Source of the DNA: an uncultured Gammaproteobacteria bacterium
GTDB lineage: Bacteria > Patescibacteriota > Microgenomatia > UBA8517 > UBA10165
Assembly (NCBI GenBank): GCA_964366515.1
Contig: CAYIUF010000002.1
Span: 1-55,532 of the forward strand
DNA length: 55,532 bases
Reading direction: 5' to 3'
In this document: piece by piece, positions 2,570 through 22,957 of the stretch
Layout: each line of letters begins with the position of its first letter
Numbering within the stretch: the stretch's first letter is position 1
Notes under the pieces: generated by a model
The model's database searches: none
What the model was told of the DNA's origin: nothing
What the model saw: only the letters and a program-made list of their open reading frames with translations
Made by a program: the position numbers and the translations under genes

Positions 2570-3115
2570 TTACAATTTCTTCTTAACTCTGTTTGCAAAC
2601 TGGGCATTAAGGTTTTCTCTTAGACTTTTATCATCAGCTGCTTTAACTCTCATACTTTCAGCGAATTTTGAAAGTTGTTTTTTCTCTCTTGAAACTAGAT
2701 ACTCTGATCCAAGAGCTAGTAGTATGTCTGGTAGACCGTACCCGATCCCGGGGGTTCTTTTTGCTCTATATATCTCTCTTCTGGATGGGAGTTTTGAAAT
2801 TACTGATCTCAAACCCTGGCCAGCATTACCTAACCACATTCTAACTTTTGTAACAGTAGCAAAGCTGCAATGAAGCTCCCTTACAATCTCTTCGTTCTTT
2901 TGTCCAGCCATCAGCAACTTTGCGATTCTTAGACGCTTGGCGAGAATCTTGACTTCGTCTTCGGTCAAAAGGTCTCTTAAAAAGAGAGTGGTATTTACCG
3001 GTGTGCGCAAGAGTGAGAACGCATTGATAAGGTCAAAGATTAGGTCTTCCTGGCTCTTGGGGGAAATTTTCTCAAGGCGTTTTCTATTCGTTTCAAAGTA
3101 ATTAAACTTACCCAT
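2570..3115 (-). CDS. TrpR-related YerC/YecD-like helix-turn-helix regulator with C-terminal extension
   Basis: LFLRDLLTEDEVKILAKRLRIAKLLMAGQKNEEIVRELHCSFATVTKV resembles the TrpR/YerC-YecD family core. Assigned by recall, not by search. Confidence 0.65.
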   Translation of the reverse strand: MGKFNYFETNRKRLEKISPKSQEDLIFDLINAFSLLRTPVNTTLFLRDLLTEDEVKILAKRLRIAKLLMAGQKNEEIVRELHCSFATVTKVRMWLGNAGQGLRSVISKLPSRREIYRAKRTPGIGYGLPDILLALGSEYLVSREKKQLSKFAESMRVKAADDKSLRENLNAQFANRVKKKL

Positions 3116-3123
3116 ATCTTAAG

Positions 3124-3149
3124 TATACACCTATACATATAGGTGTATA
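3124..3149. promoter_or_regulatory. 26-bp palindrome copy 2 (perfect 12-bp arms TATACACCTATA/TATAGGTGTATA); candidate autoregulatory operator
   Basis: Lies 9 nt upstream of the TrpR-like start codon (3115), between an AT-rich -10-like TATAAA and the ATG. Confidence 0.6.
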
Positions 3150-3242
3150 AATTTATAGTAGTTCTTTTTCTTAGGGGATAATTTTGCCGAGTCGAGTGAA
3201 AGAAAATTTTTGCCCAATTTTATCAATAAAGGGCGGAGGAAC

Positions 3243-4520
3243 CTATGGTAGGATTTTTCGGAAAAGTTCTGTTGCTCGGCCAAAAAGCCCTTTGACCGGC
3301 AAGCCGCCACGAACTCTGGAGTAAATTGCCGCTGGCGACCAGTTTGTTTGTGCACTCTGGGGATTTTGGGTTGCATATATTAATAGTCCAACACAGCCTG
3401 CAAAGGCCGGGTTTGTTACTTCATCAATTAGCCCCGTTACACCCTTTGGAACTCCAAGCCTGACCGGTAGGGAAAGCATTCTTCTTGCTGCCTCTGTTGC
3501 ACCGACGGTTTGCGCAGCGCCCCCAGTTAGAACAATGCCTGAGGGGGTTTTTCCTGCAGTTGCCGATTCCGATAGATTCATGCCGACCATTGTGAATATT
3601 TCGTTTAAGCGGGGTTTTATAATTCCCTCAATTAAGGTTTTTTCTGAAATTTTTCTATCACCTTCGTCGACGTTGTAATGTTTTAGATCTATTTCATCTT
3701 CATCTCCTTCTGATTTGCCTTTCTTTCTTTTTTCTCCTAGAAGGATTTTGATTTTTTCTGCTGAATCAAGGGAAACTCTTAGTCCTGCTGCAATGTCGTT
3801 TGTTACATTTTTTCCGCCAATTGGCAAAACAGAAGAATGGGCGATTGATCCTTCGACATAAACGACGAGTGATGTTGTACCTGCTCCAACGTCAACTAAA
3901 ACGACACCAAGTTCTCGCTCGGTATCAGAAAGCACTGAGACTGCAGAGGATAGCCCTGAGAAAACCATTCCTACCGGGGTCACTCCAACTTCTGAGACTG
4001 ACTTTTGAATGTTTTTTACAGCGGTCGTTGAGCCAGTAATTAGATGGGTTTCAACTTCGAGTCTTACACCGCTCATTCCTTCGGGATCTCGTACCTGGGT
4101 TTCGCCGTCAACTTTATATTCTTTTGGCAAGACGTGGATTATTTCCCTTGCTTCTGGAAGCGAGACTGCACGTGCAGCGTCAATTACTCGTTCAATGTCT
4201 TGGGAGGAGATTTCTCCCCCGGGATCTGCAACCGCAACTACTCCTGAGGAATTTCTTGAGTCAATGTGACCCCCGCCTATTGTTACATATGACTGGTCAA
4301 GGCTGTAGCCGGCCATGCGTTCGGCTTGTTCAACTGATTCTAAAACTGCAGCTGCTGCCTCATCGATATCTACAATCTGCCCTTTTCTTACTCCACGAGA
4401 TGGAACCATTCCAACTCCGGAGATTGATATTTTATCTTCCAGTTCGTCGTATTGGGCCACCAATGACGCGATTTTGCCTGATCCTATATCTATTCCCGCC
4501 AAGACTTTTGTTTTCGCCAT
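3243..4520 (-). CDS. ftsA: Cell division protein FtsA
   Basis: Actin-fold N-terminus AGIDIGSGKIASLVAQ. Length and position at the end of the dcw cluster fit FtsA. Confidence 0.9.
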   Translation of the reverse strand: MAKTKVLAGIDIGSGKIASLVAQYDELEDKISISGVGMVPSRGVRKGQIVDIDEAAAAVLESVEQAERMAGYSLDQSYVTIGGGHIDSRNSSGVVAVADPGGEISSQDIERVIDAARAVSLPEAREIIHVLPKEYKVDGETQVRDPEGMSGVRLEVETHLITGSTTAVKNIQKSVSEVGVTPVGMVFSGLSSAVSVLSDTERELGVVLVDVGAGTTSLVVYVEGSIAHSSVLPIGGKNVTNDIAAGLRVSLDSAEKIKILLGEKRKKGKSEGDEDEIDLKHYNVDEGDRKISEKTLIEGIIKPRLNEIFTMVGMNLSESATAGKTPSGIVLTGGAAQTVGATEAARRMLSLPVRLGVPKGVTGLIDEVTNPAFAGCVGLLIYATQNPQSAQTNWSPAAIYSRVRGGLPVKGLFGRATELFRKILP

Positions 4521-7510: not shown

Positions 7511-8566
7511 TTAAATATATGCTAACCACAGGCCAATGATTGCTAAAATTATCCCAGCAAGCCATGCTCTTGTTACAATTTTTGGCTCCTCCCAACCAAT
7601 TGCCAAGAGTGTGTGATGGAGTGGTGCAAGGGGGAAAATGGGCCGCTTGAGAATTTTCCAACCCAGTATCTGAATCGCAGAAGACGCAATTTCAACTACA
7701 AATACTCCACCTATTATAAGAAGCGCAACGATGCTTCCTGTCAAAAGCCCGATGAGCCCAAGCATTGCACCAAAAGACAACGATCCGGTATCTCCCAAGA
7801 AAATTCTTGCAGGCCAAACATTAAAATATAAAAACGCGATCAAAGCCCCAACCCAAAGCGAGATAAAAACTGATAATGGAGTATCAAGACTTCCTGCGGC
7901 GATTGGAGCAAAAGCCAAAAGACAGATCATCAAAAGGCCAGTGGACAGGCCGTCAAGGCCGTCTGTTATATTGAATGCATTTGAGAAAGCAACAATTACA
8001 AACGCACCAAACGGAACATACCAAAAGCCCAAATCTAAGACTCTTCCAAGCAATGGGATATTGAGGATATGGATTCCTAAATATTTGTAAACGACAAAGC
8101 TAACGCTTAAAGCCAGAACCCATTGAAGTAGAAATTTTATCCTTCTTGACAACCCAAACCAAATGCCTGAGGCTCCGGCTCTTCCTTTACCAAAAATTTT
8201 AATAAGATCATCAGATAACCCAAGGAGACCAAAGGAAATGAAGGTAAAGAAAAGCACAATAAGCTCAAGACTCGCATTGTATGCGGTTTGTACAAATACA
8301 CCCAAATACGTAGCCAGAGGAAAAATGATTGCAAAAAGTATTGAGACTACTGCAATTAAAAGAATTCCGCCCCCAACCGGAGTTCCGGCTTTTATGTCGT
8401 GCAGTCTGTCAAACAGTGGTATCTTGCCTTTTTTGGGAGCCTCGATTCTTCTTGTGAATTTAAACCAATATAAAAGATTTATGAACGGAATTACAAGGAT
8501 TCCGGTAATTAAAAAGGAAAAAATGACAAGCCCAAGAGCCAGGGGAAGTATGTTTGAGATGTTCAT
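7511..8566 (-). CDS. mraY: Phospho-N-acetylmuramoyl-pentapeptide transferase MraY
   Basis: NAFNITDGLDGL motif. Polytopic membrane protein. Confidence 0.95.
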   Translation of the reverse strand: MNISNILPLALGLVIFSFLITGILVIPFINLLYWFKFTRRIEAPKKGKIPLFDRLHDIKAGTPVGGGILLIAVVSILFAIIFPLATYLGVFVQTAYNASLELIVLFFTFISFGLLGLSDDLIKIFGKGRAGASGIWFGLSRRIKFLLQWVLALSVSFVVYKYLGIHILNIPLLGRVLDLGFWYVPFGAFVIVAFSNAFNITDGLDGLSTGLLMICLLAFAPIAAGSLDTPLSVFISLWVGALIAFLYFNVWPARIFLGDTGSLSFGAMLGLIGLLTGSIVALLIIGGVFVVEIASSAIQILGWKILKRPIFPLAPLHHTLLAIGWEEPKIVTRAWLAGIILAIIGLWLAYI

Positions 8567-8602: not shown

Positions 8603-9628
8603 TCACAGTCCGCGTGAAACTCTCCTTCCTTTCTCAAACATATATGTTAACCAATACAAAGGAGAGATTGGGAGATCCTGGGCTGGAAGCCAGTCTATCC
8701 TTTCCCCTCCAAAACCTTTTTTAAAAATTGTAACTCCGTAAAATCTATGTCTTGGGTCGTCAGTTGGGGCAATTCCCCAAAAATTATATCCAGTTTTACC
8801 CCTCTTTTTTGCAACTTTTATTATATTCCACTGCATAAAATATGAAAATGGCAGGTCTCTGTGGGTGCTTACCGACCCTGAATGGTGGTAGTAGGCATAA
8901 TCCCCATAAAAGACTATGATTGCTGCTGCCAGCACTTCAGACTTTAGCTTGCATACAAAGAGAGATGCTTGGTTATCTTGCCCAAAAGTCTCAAGCTGTG
9001 CCTCAAAAAGTTTTTGTGAAAAGGGGACAAACTTGTGACGTTTTACGGTTTCTTCTTGAAGTTTATACAGCATTGGAGCCATGTCGGAGCTTTTGTGCTC
9101 TTCGATTTCTAGGCCTTTTGACAGGCTTTGTCTTATCAGGTATCTAGTAGTTTTGCGCATCGCGGCAAGTATTTCTTCTTCCTCCGGCTTAAGTCTTAGA
9201 ACCCATGTATTTTGTGCATGAAGATGCATTGGGGATTTGATAAATCCAAGTTTTTTGAATTTTTCTCGGGCATCTGGGGAATCTGAGACTTCCGGCCTTA
9301 ATCTTATGAACCAAACTTTTTCTGCGAAAGCAAGATTTTTTAACTCTTTTAAGACGAAGCTCACAAGCGATTTATTGCTCCAATCAATGAGTGGGCCTCC
9401 AGGTATTAGAAAATAGGGTCCTCGACGGGCTCTTTCAATAATGACCTGTGCACATCCCACGAGTCTTCTGTTCACATTAAAGAACCCCAACCTGATAACC
9501 TGATTTCCCAGTAGCTTATTCGTTTCTCCCCAATTCCAGGACTGCAAAAAAGATTGAGGCTTTTGAGAAAGGACAAATTTTTCCCAATTCTTTTTATTTT
9601 CGATTAGTTTGCTTTGGTACGTAGCCAT
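8603..9628 (-). CDS. FemAB-family peptidoglycan interpeptide-bridge aminoacyltransferase (FemX-like)
   Basis: N-terminus FLQSWNWGE... and an overall ~340-aa two-GNAT-like layout are typical of the FemAB family. Assigned by recall. Confidence 0.75.
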   Translation of the reverse strand: MATYQSKLIENKKNWEKFVLSQKPQSFLQSWNWGETNKLLGNQVIRLGFFNVNRRLVGCAQVIIERARRGPYFLIPGGPLIDWSNKSLVSFVLKELKNLAFAEKVWFIRLRPEVSDSPDAREKFKKLGFIKSPMHLHAQNTWVLRLKPEEEEILAAMRKTTRYLIRQSLSKGLEIEEHKSSDMAPMLYKLQEETVKRHKFVPFSQKLFEAQLETFGQDNQASLFVCKLKSEVLAAAIIVFYGDYAYYHHSGSVSTHRDLPFSYFMQWNIIKVAKKRGKTGYNFWGIAPTDDPRHRFYGVTIFKKGFGGERIDWLPAQDLPISPLYWLTYMFEKGRRVSRGL

Positions 9629-10755
9629 TGTTTGATAACACTCACCACGGTTTGTGCGTCTTTTAGGGTTAAGTTTGGGTATGTTGGTAAGTTGACCACA
9701 TCGGCGTCAATTTCGTTGTACCAGTCGCCTAGAATCACACCTTTGTTTTTTGCAAACTTAAGTAAGCCTCGTGCATTTTTAACTCTTAACGGAAATCTAA
9801 GATACACTGCTTCTTTTATGTTTGGTGGCAGCACAATTGCATCCTCGTTAAGGTTTTCGAAATGAAACTTTAAATTCTCAAAATAGTATTTTGCGATCTT
9901 TTTTCTATGAAGATTAAATCTTTCGAGTTTTTTTAGCTGGTGTCTTGCAAGAGCCGCTAAAGCCACGGGCATTTTAGATGGAAACACATTTGGTTGGCCG
10001 CCCTTTTTTTCTTCAGGGTACACTGCACGAGACAGCAGATTGATTTTTTGTAATGCAAATAGAATAAGTTTGCCCAAACCAACTGAGTAAGTGGGCAAAA
10101 TTACAAACATGGCTATTGGATGAAGGAGTTGCTGGAGTGTCCACAATAGTGGGGGATTTTTGAGTTTGTCTCGAAGTGCTTTTAGTTTAACGAATAATTC
10201 GCTATCTGACACAATGATCATCCCGCCAAAAACGGATGAGATGATCTTGTCTCTTCCGAAACTAAAGAATGCAATTTCACCAGTTTTTCCAATTCCTAGT
10301 GAGTGGGCTTGATCGTCTATTATTGGCACTCTTAATTTTTTTATGTTAGCCGGTATTCCGAATGTATTTTGCTGAATAATGGCTTTTGTTTTTTTTGTAA
10401 GTTTTTTTTGTAAATCTTTTTCGTCTATGTTGTAATCACTTCCCATATCAACCCCAACTGGCTTGGCGCCAAGCCATGAGGCGGAATTAGGAACTGCAAC
10501 ACATGTAAATGTTTGGTATATTACTTCGTCTCGTTTGCCCACACCCAACGTTTTTAATATTAAGTATTCTGCACTTCTTCCACTGTTGACTGCAAGCGCC
10601 TGATACCCAGGGAACATTTCCTCAAATTCTCTCTCAAGTTTTTCGGTTTCGCTCGTGTCTTGCCACTTCAATGGATTGAAGAGAGTTTTTAGGGCAAGTA
10701 GAACATCGTCATTTTCGTAATTGGGTCCAAGGGATATGTGGATTGGTCTCTTCAT
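9604..10755 (-). CDS. DegT/DnrJ/EryC1/StrS-family PLP-dependent aminotransferase
   Basis: AVNSGRSAEYL, DDQAHSLG and FSFGRDKIIS (PLP-lysine context). Start moved to MKRPIH (10755), which directly abuts the murF stop. Confidence 0.75.
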   Translation of the reverse strand: MKRPIHISLGPNYENDDVLLALKTLFNPLKWQDTSETEKLEREFEEMFPGYQALAVNSGRSAEYLILKTLGVGKRDEVIYQTFTCVAVPNSASWLGAKPVGVDMGSDYNIDEKDLQKKLTKKTKAIIQQNTFGIPANIKKLRVPIIDDQAHSLGIGKTGEIAFFSFGRDKIISSVFGGMIIVSDSELFVKLKALRDKLKNPPLLWTLQQLLHPIAMFVILPTYSVGLGKLILFALQKINLLSRAVYPEEKKGGQPNVFPSKMPVALAALARHQLKKLERFNLHRKKIAKYYFENLKFHFENLNEDAIVLPPNIKEAVYLRFPLRVKNARGLLKFAKNKGVILGDWYNEIDADVVNLPTYPNLTLKDAQTVVSVIKQWLRTKAN

Positions 10756-16623: not shown

Positions 16624-18045
16624 TTAGGTAGAAACCTCGGGTAACTTATCGTACAGGTGAAAGATGTCGCCTGCACCCATGGTCACGATTACATCATTTT
16701 TTTGTGTGTGTTTTGTTAGAAACTTTAAGGTTGATTTGTGATCGCCACAGTAATGCGAGTCATTGTGATATTTCCCCACTGCTTCTCTCAGTTTTTGTGA
16801 GTTCACAGTAGGGTCTACTTTTTCTCTTGCTGATGCGTAAATGTCCATCAAACCAACTACGTTTGCATTCCCAAAACTTTGCGCAAATTCGTCAAATAAA
16901 GCTTTTGTTCTTGAGTAAGTGTGTGGTTGAAAGATGGCCACGAGCCTTCTTTCTGGGTACCAGTCTCTGAGCGCTGCCAAAACTGCTTTTATTTCAGTTG
17001 GGTGATGAGCATAGTCGTCGTAGTATGTAATTCCGTCCATATCTTGCACCTTCTCAATTCTTCTGCGGCAACCGGTATAACTTTCGATTCCACGCACTAA
17101 CTCATCTTGTGGAATCTTAAAAAATTCACCTGCCACAATAGAAGCCGTTGCGTTCAAGATGTTGAATTTCCCTGGAACACTTAAAGAATAATCGTAATAT
17201 ACACCTATATGTATAAGTGTATATTTGGCTTTTTGGTTTTTGAAATCCACATTCTCAATTTTCCAGTCTGCATCTTTTGAAAATCCATAAGTTTTTACTG
17301 GAACTTTTGTGTTTTTAATTAATTCGCGGACATTGTCGTTATCTATGCACGCTACGAGTAACCCATCTGCTGGTACGCGGCTGATAAATTCTAGAAAAAC
17401 TTTTTTAGTATCTTCAAAAGTTGGGTAGATGTCGGGGTGGTCATGCTCAAGGTTGGGAATTATTAACACTTTGGGGTGCTGGAAAAAAAATCTGGGACGG
17501 TTGTCGGTTCCGGGGGAAATTGCGTATTCATCTGCTTCGGTTATAAACTCCTTCCCAGCCTTGTCATAGCGCCCAGGGGTGCCTAAAGCTTTGATATCGC
17601 CCACACCTACGGCAAAAGAGGGGTTCCTGCCTGCGCTATCAAGAAGTGTTGCCACCATAGAGGCTATAGTTGTCTTACCACCAACTCCGGCCACAGTAAT
17701 TAGGTCTTTGCCGAAAGTGAGTTCTCCCAAGGCTTCTGCGTGGCTGAGCACTGGGATGTTTAGCCTCTTTGCTTCGACCACTTCCGGGTTATCCCAGCCT
17801 CCATGCGCGCCTGTGAATATGACCAAATCTGGTCGCGGTTTCAAATGCTCCGCCGAGAAGCCCTTTAGCCACGCAAGGTCGTTCCTTGCGAGCGTGGCGT
17901 CGGTTACAAAGATTTCTTCAGTATCTGAGCCTGTGATTTTTATTCCGAGGTCCTTTAGGCACAAAGCGAGGCTGGTCATGCCTACGCCTTTGATGCCTGT
18001 AAAATGGACATGTTTTGAGGTAAAGATGTCTGGTTTTGAAGCCAT
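16624..18045 (-). CDS. murC: UDP-MurNAc--L-Ala ligase MurC
   Basis: VHFTGIKGVGMTSLA and AGVGGKTTIASM motifs. Confidence 0.95.
   Translation of the reverse strand: MASKPDIFTSKHVHFTGIKGVGMTSLALCLKDLGIKITGSDTEEIFVTDATLARNDLAWLKGFSAEHLKPRPDLVIFTGAHGGWDNPEVVEAKRLNIPVLSHAEALGELTFGKDLITVAGVGGKTTIASMVATLLDSAGRNPSFAVGVGDIKALGTPGRYDKAGKEFITEADEYAISPGTDNRPRFFFQHPKVLIIPNLEHDHPDIYPTFEDTKKVFLEFISRVPADGLLVACIDNDNVRELIKNTKVPVKTYGFSKDADWKIENVDFKNQKAKYTLIHIGVYYDYSLSVPGKFNILNATASIVAGEFFKIPQDELVRGIESYTGCRRRIEKVQDMDGITYYDDYAHHPTEIKAVLAALRDWYPERRLVAIFQPHTYSRTKALFDEFAQSFGNANVVGLMDIYASAREKVDPTVNSQKLREAVGKYHNDSHYCGDHKSTLKFLTKHTQKNDVIVTMGAGDIFHLYDKLPEVST
17198..17223. repeat. 26-bp palindrome copy 3 (TATACACCTATA-TG-TATAAGTGTATA) embedded in-frame in murC
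   Basis: 33 nt (17196-17228) match the copy at 2541-2573 except for the central dinucleotide. Encodes ..YTLIHIGVYYDY.. just upstream of the conserved PG-x-x-N motif. Confidence 0.6.
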
Positions 18046-18058
18046 TGAGGTAGCGCTT

Positions 18059-18067
18059 ATTGTACCA
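18059..18067 (-). promoter_or_regulatory. Extended -10 (TGGTACAAT) for murC
   Basis: Reverse strand reads TGGTACAAT, 13 nt upstream of the murC ATG. No Shine-Dalgarno sequence lies in between. Confidence 0.4.
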
Positions 18068-18083
18068 CATTTGTGCTCGAATA

Positions 18084-18092
18084 TGGTATACT
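18084..18092 (+). promoter_or_regulatory. Extended -10 (TGgTATACT) for islet-1 first operon
   Basis: TGGTATACT, 33 nt upstream of the TTG start at 18126. Divergent from the murC promoter. Confidence 0.45.
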
Positions 18093-18125
18093 ACAGGAAG
18101 TTAGAGGATTGTAAAGGAGGGTACT

Positions 18126-18320
18126 TTGAAAAAGCAGAAAAGCGCGGCAACGATCACAGCATCTGAAAGGAAGCCATCAGCGAGGTTCGTCCTAACTGAA
18201 GCCAAAAAACGCGAGCTTGAGGAGATGTGGCGAAAATCCGTAGCCTCAGTCAACAACGGCTTTATGCAGCTTCCAGGATATCGAGGCCGGTATCACATCC
18301 CGCCAAGGTACCCATGGTAA
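18126..18320 (+). CDS. Small basic protein, unknown function (64 aa)
   Basis: AAAGGAGG lies 6 nt before the TTG start. Confidence 0.55.
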   Translation: MKKQKSAATITASERKPSARFVLTEAKKRELEEMWRKSVASVNNGFMQLPGYRGRYHIPPRYPW

Positions 18321-18334
18321 GAAAAGGAGATCGC

Positions 18335-18529
18335 ATGAAATCGAATGAGCGCGGCACTACAGAACTCGATCAAATAATCTCCGAAGCAAACCAGGTGGGA
18401 AGCCCAACTTCGAGAGAGTGGTGGGAGTACTACGAACGCGAAGTCATTCGCCGCGTGTTAGGTCCGGTATATGACAAGGGGAGGCGGATAGGTTCCCGCG
18501 GATTAGCGATGAGGACAGTCACTTTCTGA
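18335..18529 (+). CDS. Small protein, unknown function (64 aa)
   Basis: AAAGGAG lies 5 nt before the ATG at 18335 (MKSNERGTTELDQ...). The ORF-track start at 18227 overlaps the previous gene. Confidence 0.55.
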   Translation: MKSNERGTTELDQIISEANQVGSPTSREWWEYYEREVIRRVLGPVYDKGRRIGSRGLAMRTVTF

Positions 18530-18583
18530 CCCAACGGAGCTTTCAATTTTTGTGGAAACACGAAACTTGGGAGCTCTTTTTTT
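18530..18583 (+). terminator. Candidate intrinsic terminator
   Basis: CCCAA(18530-18534)..TTGGG(18567-18571) with inner TTTC/GAAA pairing, then a T7 run (18577-18583). Confidence 0.4.
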
Positions 18584-18650
18584 GTGCCTGTTTGTTACCA
18601 CGTTCTAGAACATAGAAACATACTGCGATGATTCGAATTATCGAAGTGAA

Positions 18651-18679
18651 TTGTGTAAATTTTTCTATAGATATATACT
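18651..18679 (+). promoter_or_regulatory. Sigma70-type promoter of islet-1 second operon
   Basis: TTGTGT(18651-18656), 17 nt, TATACT(18674-18679). Confidence 0.5.
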
Positions 18680-18717
18680 AGCGATAATTCAATTTGCAGT
18701 TTAAAAAAGGAGAGAAT

Positions 18718-18960
18718 ATGTCCGGGGAAGTTAAAATCATTGTTTCCACTCGGTTGCTTTTAAAAATCATGTGGCTTTTGAGTTGGCTGCCAAGCCTTGC
18801 ATGGTTCATCCTCCTGATTGTCCGAAATCCGACACCTGAGGAATTTACCCGTACTCAACCAATGGTGATTGGGAGCTTTGCGGCGGTGTGTCTTTGGATA
18901 ATGTTAGCTGGTGTTTTTCCGCTCATCTTCGCCAAACAAGGAGATTCTGATGACACCTAA
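18718..18960 (+). CDS. Two-TM small membrane protein (80 aa)
   Basis: AAAAAGGAGAG precedes the ATG at 18718. Two hydrophobic helices (LLLKIMWLLSWLPSLAWFILLIV; VIGSFAAVCLWIMLAGVFPLIF). Confidence 0.6.
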   Translation: MSGEVKIIVSTRLLLKIMWLLSWLPSLAWFILLIVRNPTPEEFTRTQPMVIGSFAAVCLWIMLAGVFPLIFAKQGDSDDT

Positions 18961-19210
18961 GTGCATGCCGCGTTGGCCAATCTGTTCCTACATCAAGGTA
19001 GGCAAAGGAGGAAGACTGGTATTGAGCAGAAAACAACCAAACCCGTTTGCGTCGGTCTTTGCAAAGAGGCTGGCTCGTCAACCTCTGACACGTCGAGACA
19101 AGGCACTCTTGGTTCAGTTTTGGAAAGAGGCCAAGCATAGCCTTGCCGAGCGGGTTGACGAGGAGTCGCGAGCGGCTGTTGTTTGGGAAAGGCGAAGAAC
19201 AGTTGTCTAG
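18950..19210 (+). CDS. Small Arg/Lys-rich protein (86 aa)
   Basis: AAGGAG lies 6 nt before the ATG at 18950. Overlaps the previous gene by 11 nt. Confidence 0.5.
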   Translation: MTPKCMPRWPICSYIKVGKGGRLVLSRKQPNPFASVFAKRLARQPLTRRDKALLVQFWKEAKHSLAERVDEESRAAVVWERRRTVV

Positions 19211-19232
19211 TCTATCCAGAAAGGGGAGAGAA

Positions 19233-19457
19233 TTGAACATAGCCTTTGTTCCAAATGTGCGCTTGTTGAGGATTGCACTTGGGGGCATGCTCTTGGCGAT
19301 AGTTGGGGGGGTTGCTTTTGAAATCGTCAACCCTACCACAGCCAAACCAGAAATCATCGCCGCCCTCGGGATTTTGGTCGTGATTGGGCTTGCAAGCATT
19401 GTGTGCTTTGTGCTTGCAATTGCCCGCGGCCGTGTTAGGTCAGAGCGGGGAGGCTGA
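19233..19457 (+). CDS. Two-TM small membrane protein (about 74 aa)
   Basis: AAAGGGGAG precedes an in-frame TTG at 19233. Two hydrophobic helices. Start uncertain (ORF track gives 19143). Confidence 0.5.
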   Translation: MNIAFVPNVRLLRIALGGMLLAIVGGVAFEIVNPTTAKPEIIAALGILVVIGLASIVCFVLAIARGRVRSERGG

Positions 19458-19476
19458 TATTAGAAAGGAGGGAGAA

Positions 19477-19710
19477 GTGACTCAGCGGAAACAAACCCGG
19501 GACAGGGTCTATCAGATTGGAGGCGCGACTCTCTCGAGGGCTGAGCTTGACAAGATGAGGCCAAAACCTTTGTCCAAGGCTGGACAAGTTCGTCATGAGC
19601 GGTTCAAAAGAATGGCGCAGAAGCGCTGGCACAGCCTTCTGAGGGAAATGGTTGTCAGGGACTTTGAAAGCTTAGGACGACAAGGTAGATTCGGACCACT
19701 GCCAGTTTGA
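19477..19710 (+). CDS. Small Arg/Lys-rich protein (77 aa)
   Basis: AAAGGAGGG precedes an in-frame GTG at 19477. The GG..LSR segment resembles the 18950 product. Confidence 0.5.
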   Translation: MTQRKQTRDRVYQIGGATLSRAELDKMRPKPLSKAGQVRHERFKRMAQKRWHSLLREMVVRDFESLGRQGRFGPLPV

Positions 19711-19715
19711 CCAAT

Positions 19716-19768
19716 GGAGCTGTTTTTTGAAGCAGAAATGCAACAAAAGATGGCTCCTTTTTCTTTTG
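19716..19768 (+). terminator. Candidate intrinsic terminator
   Basis: GGAGC(19716-19720)..GCTCC(19753-19757), then TTTTTCTTTT. Its 5' context TGACCAATGGAGC mirrors TGACCCAACGGAGC at 18527. Confidence 0.4.
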
Positions 19769-19824
19769 AGTTTGTAAGTGCTACACTTTCCCAACGAAGC
19801 TTGCAGTTTGAAAAGGAGTAAAGG

Positions 19825-20055
19825 ATGGCTGTATTATTCAAGAACAAGAGGGTGGGGTTTGTGCTTTTTTATGTCATCACACCGCTGGTTCTGGGCTTTC
19901 TGGGTCCGCGGGTTTTAGAAAGTCTAGGTTTGGGCGTATTCATTGTGCCGGCCTTCGGCCTCTGCATTCTGGTGTTGTATTTGCGGATTGCACGGCAAGA
20001 GGCAGCCGATTCGGCAAAGCGACGAGTGGCATTTGCTTCGAGAGGGAGAGACTAG
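19825..20055 (+). CDS. Two-TM small membrane protein (76 aa)
   Basis: AAAAGGAG precedes the ATG. Two hydrophobic helices. Confidence 0.6.
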   Translation: MAVLFKNKRVGFVLFYVITPLVLGFLGPRVLESLGLGVFIVPAFGLCILVLYLRIARQEAADSAKRRVAFASRGRD

Positions 20056-20057
20056 GA

Positions 20058-20321
20058 ATGTTTGAGCAGCTAGCCGCAATATTGACGGGCAAAGTCGAAC
20101 CTGAGGCAAAAGCTATCAAGCAGATGACTTTGTGTTTTCCGGTCCTCGGAATACTTGGCGCTTTCTACTGCTTTAGGTATTTCATACCTGATCGGATCGA
20201 CCTGCTGGGGTGGTTGACCCTCCTGGTTTCTTTGATCGTGTGCTTTCTGGCCCTGAGATTCTGGTACCTTGCAATTAAGCGAGGCAAGCGAGTCAAAGTG
20301 TTTGAATGGCGGGACGACTAG
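20058..20321 (+). CDS. Two-TM small membrane protein (87 aa)
   Basis: GAGGGAGAG precedes the ATG, which lies 2 nt after the previous stop. Two hydrophobic helices. Confidence 0.6.
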   Translation: MFEQLAAILTGKVEPEAKAIKQMTLCFPVLGILGAFYCFRYFIPDRIDLLGWLTLLVSLIVCFLALRFWYLAIKRGKRVKVFEWRDD

Positions 20322-20326
20322 TTCAT

Positions 20327-20371
20327 AGAGCTGCTGATTTTTTGTTTCAAACACAAGAAATTGGCAGCTCT
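20327..20371. terminator. Bidirectional hairpin between convergent genes
   Basis: AGAGCTGC(20327-20334)/GCAGCTCT(20364-20371) with inner TGTTT-C-AAACA. T-rich on the + side. Confidence 0.5.
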
Positions 20372-20374
20372 TTT

Positions 20375-22957
20375 CTATTCTTCTGCCTCAAATATTGTGC
20401 CTTCGTTGGTTGTGGGAGGGGTTGTTGGCACAGAAGTTCGAGATTCTTCTACTTCTACTTCTACTCGCTCTGCGGACACACTAGGACTGCGATCAGGATC
20501 ACCGAACACCGGTACTTGGCGGCCCGTTTCTGGGCGCCAGACCTCGTTTACATTTTTGCTTGGGGGACGTTCTGGGCTTTTTTCACGACTCCTCTTTCGT
20601 TTAGGGCGGTCAGCATCTGAGGCAATCGGGTTATCGGGTGATCGGGTGACTTGGATATCAGGAGATCGGGGTATCGGGTTGTCTTGTACTTGATTTCCTG
20701 TTTTCCCGATATCCGTCTTTACTGGTACCCTGATTCCCTGATTAACTTGCACCGGAGGTGCAACATATGCATCTTCTCCAGCAAGCTTTGTGTATTTTGC
20801 CTCGGAGGATTCAATAACTTTTTCTCTATTGCTGTTTTTGATTTCCGGCAAAGGAAGCGTGTAGGCAAAAAAGGGCCTTGAGGTTTTTGCATCAATTGCT
20901 AGTTTTGTAATTATTTGATAATTATCCAAGGCAACCATGTCTTCTTCTTTATAGACTCCGCCAAATTCGCGCATCAGAATTTGTGCGTCTTGGGCGCCAA
21001 CAAGAAAAGTCATCAAAGTTCCAACGTTTCCGAAAATTGCATGTTGGACTTCTTCTATAACCTGGCTTATATATTGGTTTGCAACAGTTAAATTTAGGCG
21101 ATATTTTCGGGCTTCTGACAAAATCTTGATAAATGACAAAGTTGCAAAGTTTTGGAACTCGTCAACATATAGATAAAAATCTTTTCTTTTTTCTTCTGCA
21201 ACTGATGCCCTATTCATTGCGGCAAGCTGGATTTTTGTAATGATCATTGCCCCAAGAAGCGCCGCATTGTCTTCTCCAAGACGCCCTTGGGACAAATTTA
21301 AAATAACAATTTTGCCTGTATCCATTGCGTCCTCCATATCAATTGTTGATTTTGGATAGCCAATGATTTCTCGAATGGTTGGAGAGGAGACGAATTGACC
21401 GACTTTGTTCAAAATCGGAGAAATTGCTTCCGTTTGCAATTTATCATTCATCTTTTCAAACTCATTTTCCCAGAAGTTTTTAAGAACAATGTCGTCCAAT
21501 GGCGCAACAACTGTTTTTCTAAATGCACGGTCTGTTAGAAGGCGTGGCACATCCACAAGAGTTGAATTTGGCCTTAAAATAAGGGTCAAAATACAGTTTC
21601 TTAAAATATACTCAAGCCTTGGACCCCAAGAGTGGCCATACAATTTTTGAAAAATAGAAACAACCCCCGATGCAACCAATTCTCCCTGCTCGGGATTTTT
21701 TACTTCAAATAAGTTCATTCTAAAAGGTCTTCTTGCGGCTGCTGCTGCATCAAGATACACAACGTCGTTTATTCTGTAGTCTGGGATATAGTCAAGGATA
21801 ATTTCTGATAAATCTCCGTGGGGGTCAACAACTGCCAAGCCCTCCCCATTGACCATATCATTTATTGCCATATTGGCAATTAAAGTTGATTTTCCAGTAC
21901 CAGATTTTCCTACAATATAAATATGGCGACGTCTGTCGTTTTTTTTGATTCCGAAATTTGTCAGTTGATTTCTAAATTCTGTTTTTGCAAAGAAATTAAT
22001 TTGGGCAATTTCTTCAGGCGTTTGGCCAACTCCTGTTGGAAGCGTATCTGGAGGATCGCCAAGCAGAGAGCCGCCCCAGGTAACATTTTTAATTTCCGAT
22101 AAATCCAGAGAAGGGAGATGAAAAATTGTTGCGAGTTCGTCTACTGATAAATATTGTCCTCCCGGGACAAATTTTGGGCTTCTAGTCAAAACGCTTTGCA
22201 AAAATGCATTTTGCTGCCAGAATTTTGGCTTTGCAAAAACTAGCGAATTGCTCTCGCCTAAAGTTAGAGATCCAAAAGATCCGGCCAACGAGGATACAAG
22301 CTGTTTTGCTCTTTTTTCGTCGGTTGATGCGGCAAGAAGGCGAATTCCAACTCGGAAAGCGTTTTGTGTGAGTTTTTTGTCGATTAATGCCGCTTTGGGG
22401 TGGGCTTTTTTGACTCCCTCTGCGTCCATTACGCCTGCAACAACTGCTCGGTTTCCTTTTGATCGCCATCGGGAGCCTGCGGGAAGTACTATTACTTGCA
22501 CGAGGAGTGTGTCTTCATCATTTACTTTTGCCATTGTTCCTAAAACTGAAGATAAAGGATCGGAATCTGCAAATTCGCGCCATGTTTTTAGAGGCAGGTA
22601 ATTTGCGCCTGAAAGTTTAAGTTCTCCAACTACTGTAAATTTTCCTTGAATTTTCTCGGGCAATGGGTCGGGGCTTGCTACGATACTTGCTTTTGGGTAT
22701 TGAGCCGCGATCTGAGATTCTATATAAGCACTAAGGGTGTCGGGGAAATGGGCATAGAAATGGGTTTTTTGGTTTACTGAGATTATTTCAAAAACGATGG
22801 GCTCTTCTGTTCCTAAAATTCTATTGAAAATTGAAGAGCGCAAGGAAGACAAACTTGAGAAAACTTGCGAGGCTGCTTCTATCGTCACTTCTGCGGTTCT
22901 ATCAGGTCTCAGCTCAACTGTGTGTAGGGGCATATTAGGTATTTTAACACACTCCAA
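20375..22957 (-). CDS. FtsK/HerA-superfamily P-loop ATPase of the TraD/TraG/VirD4 (type IV coupling protein-like) kind, with low-complexity C-terminal tail
   Basis: Walker A IVGKSGTGKSTL and Walker B-like DFYLYVDEFQNF. Architecture resembles T4CP-like proteins (recall). The start may be ATG at 22933 (MPLHTVEL...). Confidence 0.7.
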   Translation of the reverse strand: MECVKIPNMPLHTVELRPDRTAEVTIEAASQVFSSLSSLRSSIFNRILGTEEPIVFEIISVNQKTHFYAHFPDTLSAYIESQIAAQYPKASIVASPDPLPEKIQGKFTVVGELKLSGANYLPLKTWREFADSDPLSSVLGTMAKVNDEDTLLVQVIVLPAGSRWRSKGNRAVVAGVMDAEGVKKAHPKAALIDKKLTQNAFRVGIRLLAASTDEKRAKQLVSSLAGSFGSLTLGESNSLVFAKPKFWQQNAFLQSVLTRSPKFVPGGQYLSVDELATIFHLPSLDLSEIKNVTWGGSLLGDPPDTLPTGVGQTPEEIAQINFFAKTEFRNQLTNFGIKKNDRRRHIYIVGKSGTGKSTLIANMAINDMVNGEGLAVVDPHGDLSEIILDYIPDYRINDVVYLDAAAAARRPFRMNLFEVKNPEQGELVASGVVSIFQKLYGHSWGPRLEYILRNCILTLILRPNSTLVDVPRLLTDRAFRKTVVAPLDDIVLKNFWENEFEKMNDKLQTEAISPILNKVGQFVSSPTIREIIGYPKSTIDMEDAMDTGKIVILNLSQGRLGEDNAALLGAMIITKIQLAAMNRASVAEEKRKDFYLYVDEFQNFATLSFIKILSEARKYRLNLTVANQYISQVIEEVQHAIFGNVGTLMTFLVGAQDAQILMREFGGVYKEEDMVALDNYQIITKLAIDAKTSRPFFAYTLPLPEIKNSNREKVIESSEAKYTKLAGEDAYVAPPVQVNQGIRVPVKTDIGKTGNQVQDNPIPRSPDIQVTRSPDNPIASDADRPKRKRSREKSPERPPSKNVNEVWRPETGRQVPVFGDPDRSPSVSAERVEVEVEESRTSVPTTPPTTNEGTIFEAEE

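Follow-up and report, generated by a model that had tools for sequence, protein, structure and literature searches.

Introduction

The described systems that come closest to the locus in this study are strain-specific islets of orphan genes, small membrane toxins and holins, small division-associated membrane proteins and, with respect to its regulatory signals, Rho-independent terminators. For instance, GhoT/GhoS is a small membrane toxin module with a protein partner, class II holins possess two transmembrane (TM) segments, an N-in/C-in topology and a charged C-terminal tail, and YmgF of Escherichia coli is a small, division-associated protein with two TM segments. The locus itself is an array of eight small open reading frames (ORFs), g1-g8, on the plus strand of a contig of 55,532 nucleotides (nt) (GenBank CAYIUF010000002.1, assembly GCA_964366515.1), which we analysed at its full length and refer to as the window. 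The array lies within the division and cell-wall (dcw) gene cluster, between murC and the gene for an ATPase that resembles type IV coupling proteins (T4CP-like ATPase).

We hold, with moderate confidence, that the array is a lineage-specific accessory set of small-protein genes, which occupies the variable spacer between the ATPase gene and murC and has largely grown within it. This confidence refers to the structural and evolutionary description, and not to the functional proposal made further below. In such a scenario, an ancestral mini-unit, which consisted of a promoter, a small ORF and a hairpin and was oriented from murC towards the ATPase gene, would have been amplified and diversified, possibly with the inclusion of some imported sequence.

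In kind, the array is a familiar object, namely a lineage-specific accessory islet. Like the strain-specific islets of orphan genes, it is absent from relatives with conserved flanks, is compositionally distinct and encodes orphan products, while other spacers of the cluster hold different inserts in neighbouring genomes. Unlike these islets, it is richer in guanine and cytosine (GC) than the core genes, instead of AT-richer, is free of recombinase or transfer RNA (tRNA) landmarks, lies inside a division and cell-wall gene cluster, and has a promoter block and a terminator hairpin with counterparts at the same site in relatives. Its distinctive features are this same-site hairpin family and the contrast in the use of Shine-Dalgarno (SD) sequences between array and core genes.

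Despite the tiny genomes of bacteria of the Candidate Phyla Radiation (CPR), 2.3 kb inside an essential division and cell-wall cluster are spent here on eight orphan mini-genes whose expression signals are unusually strong. If these genes are real, CPR bacteria would possess a hidden accessory layer of small membrane proteins and basic proteins, and the split between an SD-less, leaderless core and SD-led, GC-richer accessory genes could help to flag them. Furthermore, a family of hairpins at a single site would provide a concrete case for the question of how new small genes originate and become more numerous at one site.

Setting and assembly support

The organism is a CPR bacterium of the Microgenomates group, whose MurC shares 60-74% identity with its counterpart in genomes of Candidatus Blackburnbacteria; contigs identical to that of the window have their origin in Hainich groundwater (well H43, 0.1 µm-filtered). 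The gene order on the minus strand is ...murB, murC, array, T4CP-like ATPase, ftsI, ftsL, mraW, mraZ.... Since all non-nested ORFs of at least 150 amino acids (aa) in the window lie on the minus strand, the array is its sole coherent plus-strand coding, as had been stated in an earlier note, which was made from the sequence without database searches. The genes called between 15.8 and 29.3 kb contain Pfam domains of the Mur ligase, DUF8128/TrwB, penicillin-binding protein, MraW and MraZ types, or none; in a look-up of the contig, DUF8128 covers the N-terminal part of the T4CP-like ATPase. Scans of the window for tRNA genes and Rfam families returned none, and a survey of the literature on Blackburnbacteria and on islands in Patescibacteria yielded nothing relevant.

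The sequence of the array is reproduced at 99.95-100% identity by independent assemblies. Three additional contigs, which stem from other samples or runs, contain its junction with the ATPase gene, and one of them (L081) also contains its junction with murC; these identical junctions in independent assemblies rule out an assembly artefact. The population variation within the array amounts to a single nucleotide polymorphism (SNP) at position 18889, a nonsynonymous change from Cys to Gly in g3.

Expression signals of the three units

The eight ORFs encode proteins of 64-87 aa and are tiled over positions 18126-20321, with an 11-nt stretch shared by g3 and g4 as their sole overlap. They fall into three units of two to four ORFs each, i.e. 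g1-g2, g3-g6 and g7-g8 (Table 1). For each unit, we found a -10 or extended -10 element, assigned by consensus, and a hairpin, which bears out the three promoter-to-terminator units described in the earlier note. The -10 elements are of the type used by the host genome. The leaders of the units are 30-40 nt long, and that of unit 3 resembles both the leader of unit 1 and that of unit 2. The palindrome ahead of unit 2 occurs once in the window, where 0.09 chance matches are expected, and may be the operator of this unit.

AAGGAG-type ribosome-binding sites precede seven of the eight ORFs, as compared to 6 of 43 core genes with a strong SD sequence before any plausible start. On the plus strand of the 2.3-kb array region, AAGGAG or AGGAGG occurs ten times, and in nine of these cases a start codon that opens at least 60 codons follows 3-10 nt past the motif, versus one of 19 cases elsewhere on the plus strand; on the minus strand of the region, AAGGAG occurs once, inside hairpin H2. 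The exception among the ORFs is g8, which has a weaker site (GAGGGAG/TAGGA), so that the claim of strong SD sequences for all eight genes stands for seven of them.

Among the core genes with a recognisable extended -10 element, i.e. murC, the glycyl-tRNA synthetase gene, a recO-like gene and the gene at 7511-8566, this element mostly ends 6-13 nt ahead of the start codon, a distance that suggests leaderless mRNAs. Leaders of 30-40 nt with strong SD sites precede the orphan accessory genes in the window.

The hairpins H1-H3 begin 5-6 nt past the stop codons of g2, g6 and g8, respectively, and are followed by runs of T. Their stems comprise 18-19 pairs, are rich in A/U and G.U pairs and share a GGAGCU/AGCUCC base. 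On the plus strand, they reach folding energies of -22.3 (H1; z -4.7), -22.1 (H2; z -3.5) and -25.3 kcal/mol (H3; z -5.9), versus -14.2, -15.7 and -18.3 kcal/mol on the minus strand, where no U-run follows. They are weaker on the minus strand because several of their pairs are G.U. This strand-specific stability, together with the T-runs, marks them as putative plus-strand terminators that define the three units, and with a stem-loop, a U-run and a position downstream of a stop codon they have what is expected of intrinsic terminators. They thereby resemble Rho-independent terminators in general, but differ from them in their unusually long stems and in being paralogous with each other and with a copy in a relative (see below). 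While the array is indeed convergent with the ATPase gene, the hairpin between them, which the earlier note took to be shared, is built for the plus strand, with its G.U pairing and T-run on that side only. The strong terminators would stop transcription of the array from running antisense into the ATPase gene.

Small orphan ORFs on one strand, punctuated by related imperfect inverted repeats, are also reminiscent of the cassettes of an integron, with the hairpins as attC recombination sites. This can hardly apply here: there are three hairpins for eight genes, they are G.U-paired, stable only as plus-strand RNA and each followed by a U-run, and every unit has a promoter-like element. Likewise, no RYYYAAC...GTTRRRY core sites were seen on inspection of the sequence, and there is no integrase domain among the genes called between 15.8 and 29.3 kb.

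Table 1. Features of the array and its borders; promoter elements were assigned by consensus and their roles are putative.
Feature	Position	Strand	Description
murC extended -10	18067-18059	-	TGGTACAAT; 13 nt ahead of the murC ATG
Unit 1 extended -10	18084-18092	+	TGGTATACT; back-to-back with the murC promoter (18059-18092)
g1 SD		+	AAAGGAGGG; 4-5 nt ahead of the g1 start
g1	18126-18320	+	TTG start, 64 aa, basic, isoelectric point (pI) 10.5, net charge +9, no TM segment
g2	18335-18529	+	64 aa, soluble, pI 9.4, AAGGAG 5 nt ahead of ATG
H1	18536-18584 (hairpin 18536-18577)	+	End of unit 1; 18-pair stem, then TTTTTTT
Palindrome	18626-18643		CGATGATTCGAATTATCG; 18 bp, near-perfect, upstream of unit 2, 8 nt ahead of the -35 element
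Unit 2 promoter	18651-18679	+	TTGTGT-17 nt-TATACT
g3	18718-18960	+	80 aa, two TM segments, acidic tail
g4	18950-19210	+	86 aa, very basic, pI 11.2, net charge +13; 11-nt overlap with the end of g3
g4 alternative start	19022	+	In-frame TTG, preceded by an internal AAGGAGG
g5	19233-19457	+	TTG start, 74 aa, two TM segments, basic C-terminal tail LAIARGRVR
g6	19477-19710	+	GTG start, 77 aa, very basic, pI 11.7, net charge +12
H2	19716-19767 (hairpin 19716-19757)	+	End of unit 2; candidate intrinsic terminator
Unit 3 extended -10	19779-19787	+	TGCTACACT
g7	19825-20055	+	76 aa, two TM segments, basic C-terminal tail
g8	20058-20321	+	87 aa, two TM segments, basic C-terminal tail; starts 2 nt past the g7 stop
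H3	20327-20379 (hairpin 20327-20371)	+	End of unit 3; abuts the convergent ATPase stop codon (20375-20377)

Counterparts at the same site in related genomes

The gene order mraW-ftsL-ftsI-ATPase-murC-murB is found in all five Blackburnbacteria relatives (L012, L001, L002, L004 and L003), with ATPases that are 64-80% identical to the one in the window. The T4CP-like ATPase is therefore a native resident of the cluster throughout the clade, and not part of the insertion; this corrects the earlier view of a normally contiguous dcw cluster, and speaks against a split that came with a foreign ATPase. The array, by contrast, is extra DNA without counterpart genes in relatives, as had been supposed: in 163 related loci, including the five from Blackburnbacteria, tblastn searches with g1-g8 gave no match at E<=0.01 and three chance-level matches at E<=1. 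The eight genes could also have turned up in relatives as a conserved, composition-matched part of the dcw cluster, which would have spoken against an insertion; they are absent there, and they differ from the cluster in composition.

While the genes have no counterparts, the edges of the array do. The spacer between the ATPase gene and murC measures 145-392 nt in the five relatives and is different in each of them. In the closest relative, L012, it contains an ORF on the strand opposite to murC, which is AGGAG-led, begins with GTG and encodes a 59-aa product that has a single TM segment and a tail rich in Cys. This ORF is followed by a hairpin, GGAGCTGTTGATTAAACAGAAATGTTTGAAAGACAGCTC plus TTTTT (9583-9634), which abuts the stop codon of the ATPase gene, i.e. 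in the same place as H3, and which aligns with H1-H3 as a homolog; the apical part of H2 in particular resembles it. A covariance model built from these four hairpins scores 48-62 bits on them, with 61 bits for H1, 61.5 bits for H2 and 49.7 bits for the L012 hairpin, and detected no other copy above 22 bits in about 1.03 Mb of sequence (273 kb from the window and close loci, 754 kb from other CPR loci). In 9 of the 18 stem pairs, changes between the four sequences are compensatory and keep the pairing, which, for so few sequences, is suggestive of a conserved stem but no proof of it. Within the sequence searched, H1-H3 and the L012 hairpin constitute one family, present in the ATPase/murC spacer and nowhere else.

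At the other edge, the region upstream of g1 shares a block, TGnTAnACTACAGG...GTAAAGGAGGGT, with L003. In the latter, the block lies on the strand opposite to murC and reads TGCTACACTACAGG...GTAAAGGAGGGT; its two parts can be written as T(A/C)ACTACAGG and GTAAAGGAGGGT. The L003 spacer also holds an ORF of 39 aa with a TM segment. Taken together, the L012 hairpin and the L003 block provide both edges of the array with counterparts at the same site in relatives.

The putative promoter of murC can be traced in the same manner. Its extended -10 element, TGGTACAAT, recurs unchanged in L003, while L012, L001 and L002 have comparable -10 elements at the same short distance from murC; all four of these relatives are free of the array. 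Consequently, murC had its own promoter before the array arose, and the proposal that the insertion had forced murC to use one does not hold.

The spacers of L002 (9669-9977) and L004 (9601-9977) have no SD-led ORF and contain short palindromic units, such as GTCATCCCTGCATAGGCAGGGATCC and CATTCCCACGGAAGTGGGAATGACA, which may be small repeat elements.

These counterparts invite a broader idea, which we consider doubtful: the spacer could be a persistent, expression-competent nursery, in which a conserved promoter/SD block and a dedicated terminator hairpin are kept while the small ORFs that they enclose turn over completely from one relative to the next. If so, the unit would have been amplified three-fold in the window and would have given rise to two new families of small proteins, the two-TM hairpins and their very basic helical partners. 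The array would then document how small-protein genes were born and expanded at their site in a minimal CPR genome, and would be an expression of a general divide, with core genes being leaderless and SD-less and accessory genes SD-led.

Coding potential of the ORFs

In the window, ORFs as long as those of the array are common by chance, and many of them overlap on both strands; what is far above chance in g1-g8 is the arrangement of signals, starts and ORFs described above. In agreement with the earlier note, the array is GC-richer than its surroundings, with a GC content of 0.47-0.51 versus about 0.41 (about 0.38-0.42 in the flanks), and its GC content at third codon positions (GC3) is 0.55, versus 0.36 in 42 core genes. 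In a codon model that was trained on the core genes and from which stop codons were excluded, core genes score +0.19 per codon and their wrong frames -0.22. The eight array ORFs range from -0.16 to +0.09, the antisense ORFs in the array from -0.12 to -0.44, and the frame of the ORF itself is the best-scoring one in only five of the eight cases. Given these intermediate scores, codon usage alone cannot confirm g4, g6, g7 and g8 as coding. When stop codons were counted, the test came out in favour of all eight frames, a result that we discounted, as it is biased towards open frames.

Gene calling on independent assemblies recovered g2, g3, g7 and g8 and missed the other four; in place of g4, the caller of the source assembly chose an antisense ORF of 144 aa over g4/g5, which has no SD sequence and a codon score of -0.20.

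Hence, it is conceivable that most of the ORFs are non-functional, i.e. proto-genes or chance frames in a fast-evolving spacer that happens to carry expression signals. This would be in line with the codon scores of g4, g6, g7 and g8, which fall within the range of wrong frames, with the overlapping ORFs on both strands and the caller's preference for the antisense ORF, with the completely different ORF content of the spacer in each relative, and with the lack of homologs of g2, g4, g6 and g8 in large protein collections. We nevertheless regard it as quite improbable, because SD sequences at the right spacing precede seven of the eight starts, the ORFs are tiled on one strand with short gaps and an 11-nt overlap of g3 and g4 that suggest translational coupling, the terminators follow 5-6 nt past the last stop of each unit, and four products share the same two-TM, positive-inside design. 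The antisense ORFs, on the other hand, score lower, and the only AAGGAG on their strand lies inside H2. The 2-nt spacing of g7 and g8 likewise suggests translational coupling. Based on the signals for initiation and termination, the tiling and the repeated membrane architecture, we accept the eight ORFs as probable genes, all of which would be translated.

Products of the array

According to their hydropathy, g3, g5, g7 and g8 each contain two hydrophobic segments with short loops, which confirms the four two-TM mini-proteins of 74-87 aa that were described earlier, as well as the description of unit 1 as encoding two soluble proteins of 64 aa. The charge distribution of the two-TM products fits the positive-inside rule, and in the membrane they would adopt an N-in/C-in hairpin topology, with their basic tails in the cytoplasm. 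The very basic products g1, g4 and g6 (pI 10.5-11.7) would remain in the cytoplasm. Two of the two-TM products are directly followed by a small, very basic protein, whereas unit 3 encodes none.

In line with the earlier note, no product matches a known family: searches with g1-g8 in Pfam (E<=1), NCBIfam (E<=0.1), PHROGs and PADLOC were negative, the latter comprising known anti-phage defence systems. Four of the products, g2, g4, g6 and g8, were also searched for in large protein collections. In word-indexed searches, no homolog of g4 and g6 was found among 5.8 billion proteins, and g2 retrieved only itself, from the same groundwater population; and for g8, an exhaustive HMMER search of 1.84 billion representatives returned only g8 and two repetitive, spurious matches. 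Accordingly, a cluster look-up lists singletons from the same population. Scans of viral contigs with g2, g6 and g8 detected no relative, a blastn search with the whole array against phages and plasmids gave no match, and phmmer searches of the PDB with g1, g2, g4 and g6 found nothing relevant.

For the basic proteins, a ribbon-helix-helix-like N-terminal strand had been considered, based on a GG..LSR segment shared by g4 and g6. This similarity is at chance level, and the two glycines of g4 are encoded by the internal, SD-like AAGGAGG ahead of the in-frame TTG at 19022. Furthermore, no ribbon-helix-helix or AbrB profile matches g1, g4 or g6. AlphaFold predicts, with low confidence, a β-hairpin (residues 15-25) followed by helices for g4 (mean predicted local distance difference test score, pLDDT, 49.6) and a single helix (residues 25-47) for g1 (pLDDT 68.7). 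Without a Pfam or PDB match and with models of such low confidence, the ribbon-helix-helix idea finds no support. A reading of the double glycine as part of a bacteriocin leader was dropped on inspection of the sequence.

The evidence for paralogy among the products is suggestive at best. Of the two-TM proteins, which had been described as paralog-like, g5 resembles g7 and g8 over the loop, the second TM segment and an LAI[AK]RG motif, with Smith-Waterman scores of 42-44 versus 24-28 for reversed partners, and g3 shows no such resemblance; BLAST finds no similarity between any of them. For the basic proteins, an A[RG]..L[T]...K..L...W helix permits an alignment of g1, g4 and g6, albeit not a significant one, and no further copies of either the two-TM or the basic proteins were found in the window. 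On the nucleotide level, short direct repeats within the array, which affect leaders, SD regions and a few coding stretches, exceed those in shuffled sequences (p about 0.00-0.03).

Possible functions

As to what the array might do, we tentatively propose accessory, conflict-type modules, in which a membrane mini-protein would be neutralised or regulated by its basic partner. Our guess, by analogy, is that they may be akin to small membrane toxin/antidote, immunity or phage-exclusion modules. Like GhoT/GhoS-type toxins and class II holins, the products in question are two-TM proteins of 74-87 aa with short external loops and basic tails. The general architecture of such toxins and holins (60-150 aa, two TM segments, N-in/C-in, charged tail) is shared by g5, g7 and g8, a resemblance that does not amount to membership. 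The two pairs of a membrane protein and a directly following small, very basic protein are reminiscent of a module with a protein partner as well. The insulation and strong signals of the units, and the fact that strains differ in having them, would likewise suit such modules. By contrast, there is no similarity on the sequence or profile level and no endolysin-like ORF in the array, the membrane protein comes first in the order of the array, and unit 3 is without a basic partner.

In size, two-TM hairpin design and neighbourhood to ftsI and murC, the membrane proteins also resemble YmgF-type proteins. However, they have no sequence similarity to these and are not conserved in close relatives, and this lack of conservation makes a role in core division unlikely.

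Lastly, the small proteins could be accessory subunits or specificity factors of the T4CP-like ATPase, for example of a VirB3-like or entry-exclusion-like type, given that the array adjoins the ATPase gene in convergent orientation, with a hairpin between them, and encodes small two-TM proteins. Yet the ATPase is retained without g1-g8 in 85 loci, i.e. the five close relatives and 80 further CPR loci. In the latter, which are more distant, the ATPase is at most about 68% identical and is not in the ftsI-ATPase-murC arrangement. The neighbourhood downstream of the ATPase gene is variable, with a median gap of 212 nt and a following gene that lies on the one or the other strand with about equal frequency, and none of the proteins has a family match. 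Given that the genes do not co-occur with the ATPase, contrary to the link considered earlier, we deem such a role very unlikely.

In the window, the C-terminal approximately 130 residues of the ATPase (20375-20700, minus strand) form a low-complexity tail encoded by GC-rich DNA with short repeats of the ATCGGGT type (20615-20679). This tail cannot be aligned to those of the relatives, which differ from it and are, for example, Gln/Pro-rich in L002.

Origin of the array

Instead of having grown in place, the whole 2.3 kb could have been imported horizontally as a block, as a remnant of a mobile element or prophage, which is essentially what the earlier note had proposed. We consider this possible, if somewhat unlikely. 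The array differs from the core genes in GC content, GC3 and codon usage as well as in its strong SD use, is absent from all relatives, and is matched by a second GC-rich island of SD-led orphan genes at 27.5-30.7 kb, which is also absent from L012 and L003. These properties would be expected of imported DNA. However, the genes called between 15.8 and 29.3 kb encode neither an integrase nor a transposase domain, and there is no tRNA gene and no convincing flanking repeat, nor is there any similarity to a phage, a plasmid or a viral contig (searched with the array and with g2, g6 and g8, as described above) or to any protein checked. Furthermore, the promoters share the extended -10 type that the host itself uses, relatives have equivalents of the end hairpin and of the first promoter/SD block at this very site, and no member of the hairpin family was found outside this spacer. 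Other spacers of the relatives also hold GC-richer, SD-led orphan genes, so that such a composition may be a general mark of the accessory genes of the clade.

Several observations nevertheless weigh against a lineage-specific accessory array that grew within its spacer. The similarity at the edges consists of short motifs, i.e. -10 elements, SD sequences and hairpins, and could be partly convergent. The paralogy of the proteins is weak, with no similarity detected by BLAST and g4 and g6 alike at chance level only. GC content and GC3 are well above those of the core, and the non-native codon usage fits imported or very young sequence. With no homologs and one SNP in the array, the ratio of nonsynonymous to synonymous substitution rates (dN/dS) cannot be estimated. 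On the functional side, our proposal is drawn from architecture, PADLOC and all family searches being empty and the structural models of g4 and g1 being of low confidence.

Other accessory genes in the window and its relatives

The second GC-rich island (27500-30750, minus strand, GC content 0.51-0.53) contains orphan genes of 181, 100, 82, 278 and 138 aa and short ORFs with TM segments. Its genes are mostly AAGGAG-led and have no significant match in Pfam or PHROGs, and a scan of viral contigs with the 278-aa protein was negative. In L012 and L003, which do not have the island, the glycyl-tRNA synthetase gene adjoins a gene of 250 aa. Within the island, two pairs of upstream repeats (29018-29080 and 30104-30166, 92% identical; 28459-28514 and 30206-30261, 86% identical) include a small hairpin, GAAAACGAATCGTCGTTTTC, ahead of AAGGAG-led starts, with a looser third copy near 28360-28390; these modules may be a shared operator or leader element. 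Another orphan ORF, which is AAGGAG-led and encodes 127 aa (32314-32697, minus strand, GC content 0.55), lies between the recO-like and glycyl-tRNA synthetase genes; in L012, this spacer contains a different SD-led ORF of 163 aa.

Relatives carry inserts in further spacers. Between ftsI and the ATPase gene, L002 (4194-7001) and, equivalently, L004 have a different insertion of about 2.9 kb, which in L002 encodes an 823-aa protein rich in Ala, Gly and Gln and an acidic protein of 110 aa on the same strand, with a GC content of 0.50-0.53. The corresponding spacer of L003 is about 870 nt long and holds an SD-led ORF of 89 aa. In L001, the spacer between the 250-aa gene and mraZ measures 1.2 kb, has a GC content of 0.56 and contains an SD-led ORF of 197 aa (2914-3507); the window has no insertion there. 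With GC-richer, SD-led orphan genes thus occurring in other spacers of the relatives, the array appears as one instance of a clade-wide habit of placing accessory genes in spacers. Among the accessory inserts that we have seen, it is the largest and the only one on the opposite strand.

Finally, a palindrome of 26 bp, TATACACCTATACATATAGGTGTATA, occurs three times in the window with at most three mismatches (2543-2568, 3124-3149 and 17198-17223), where none is expected by chance. Two of the copies are intergenic, with a gene beginning shortly downstream of each, and the third is located inside murC, where it encodes KYTLIHIGVYY, a stretch in which the protein differs from its relatives.

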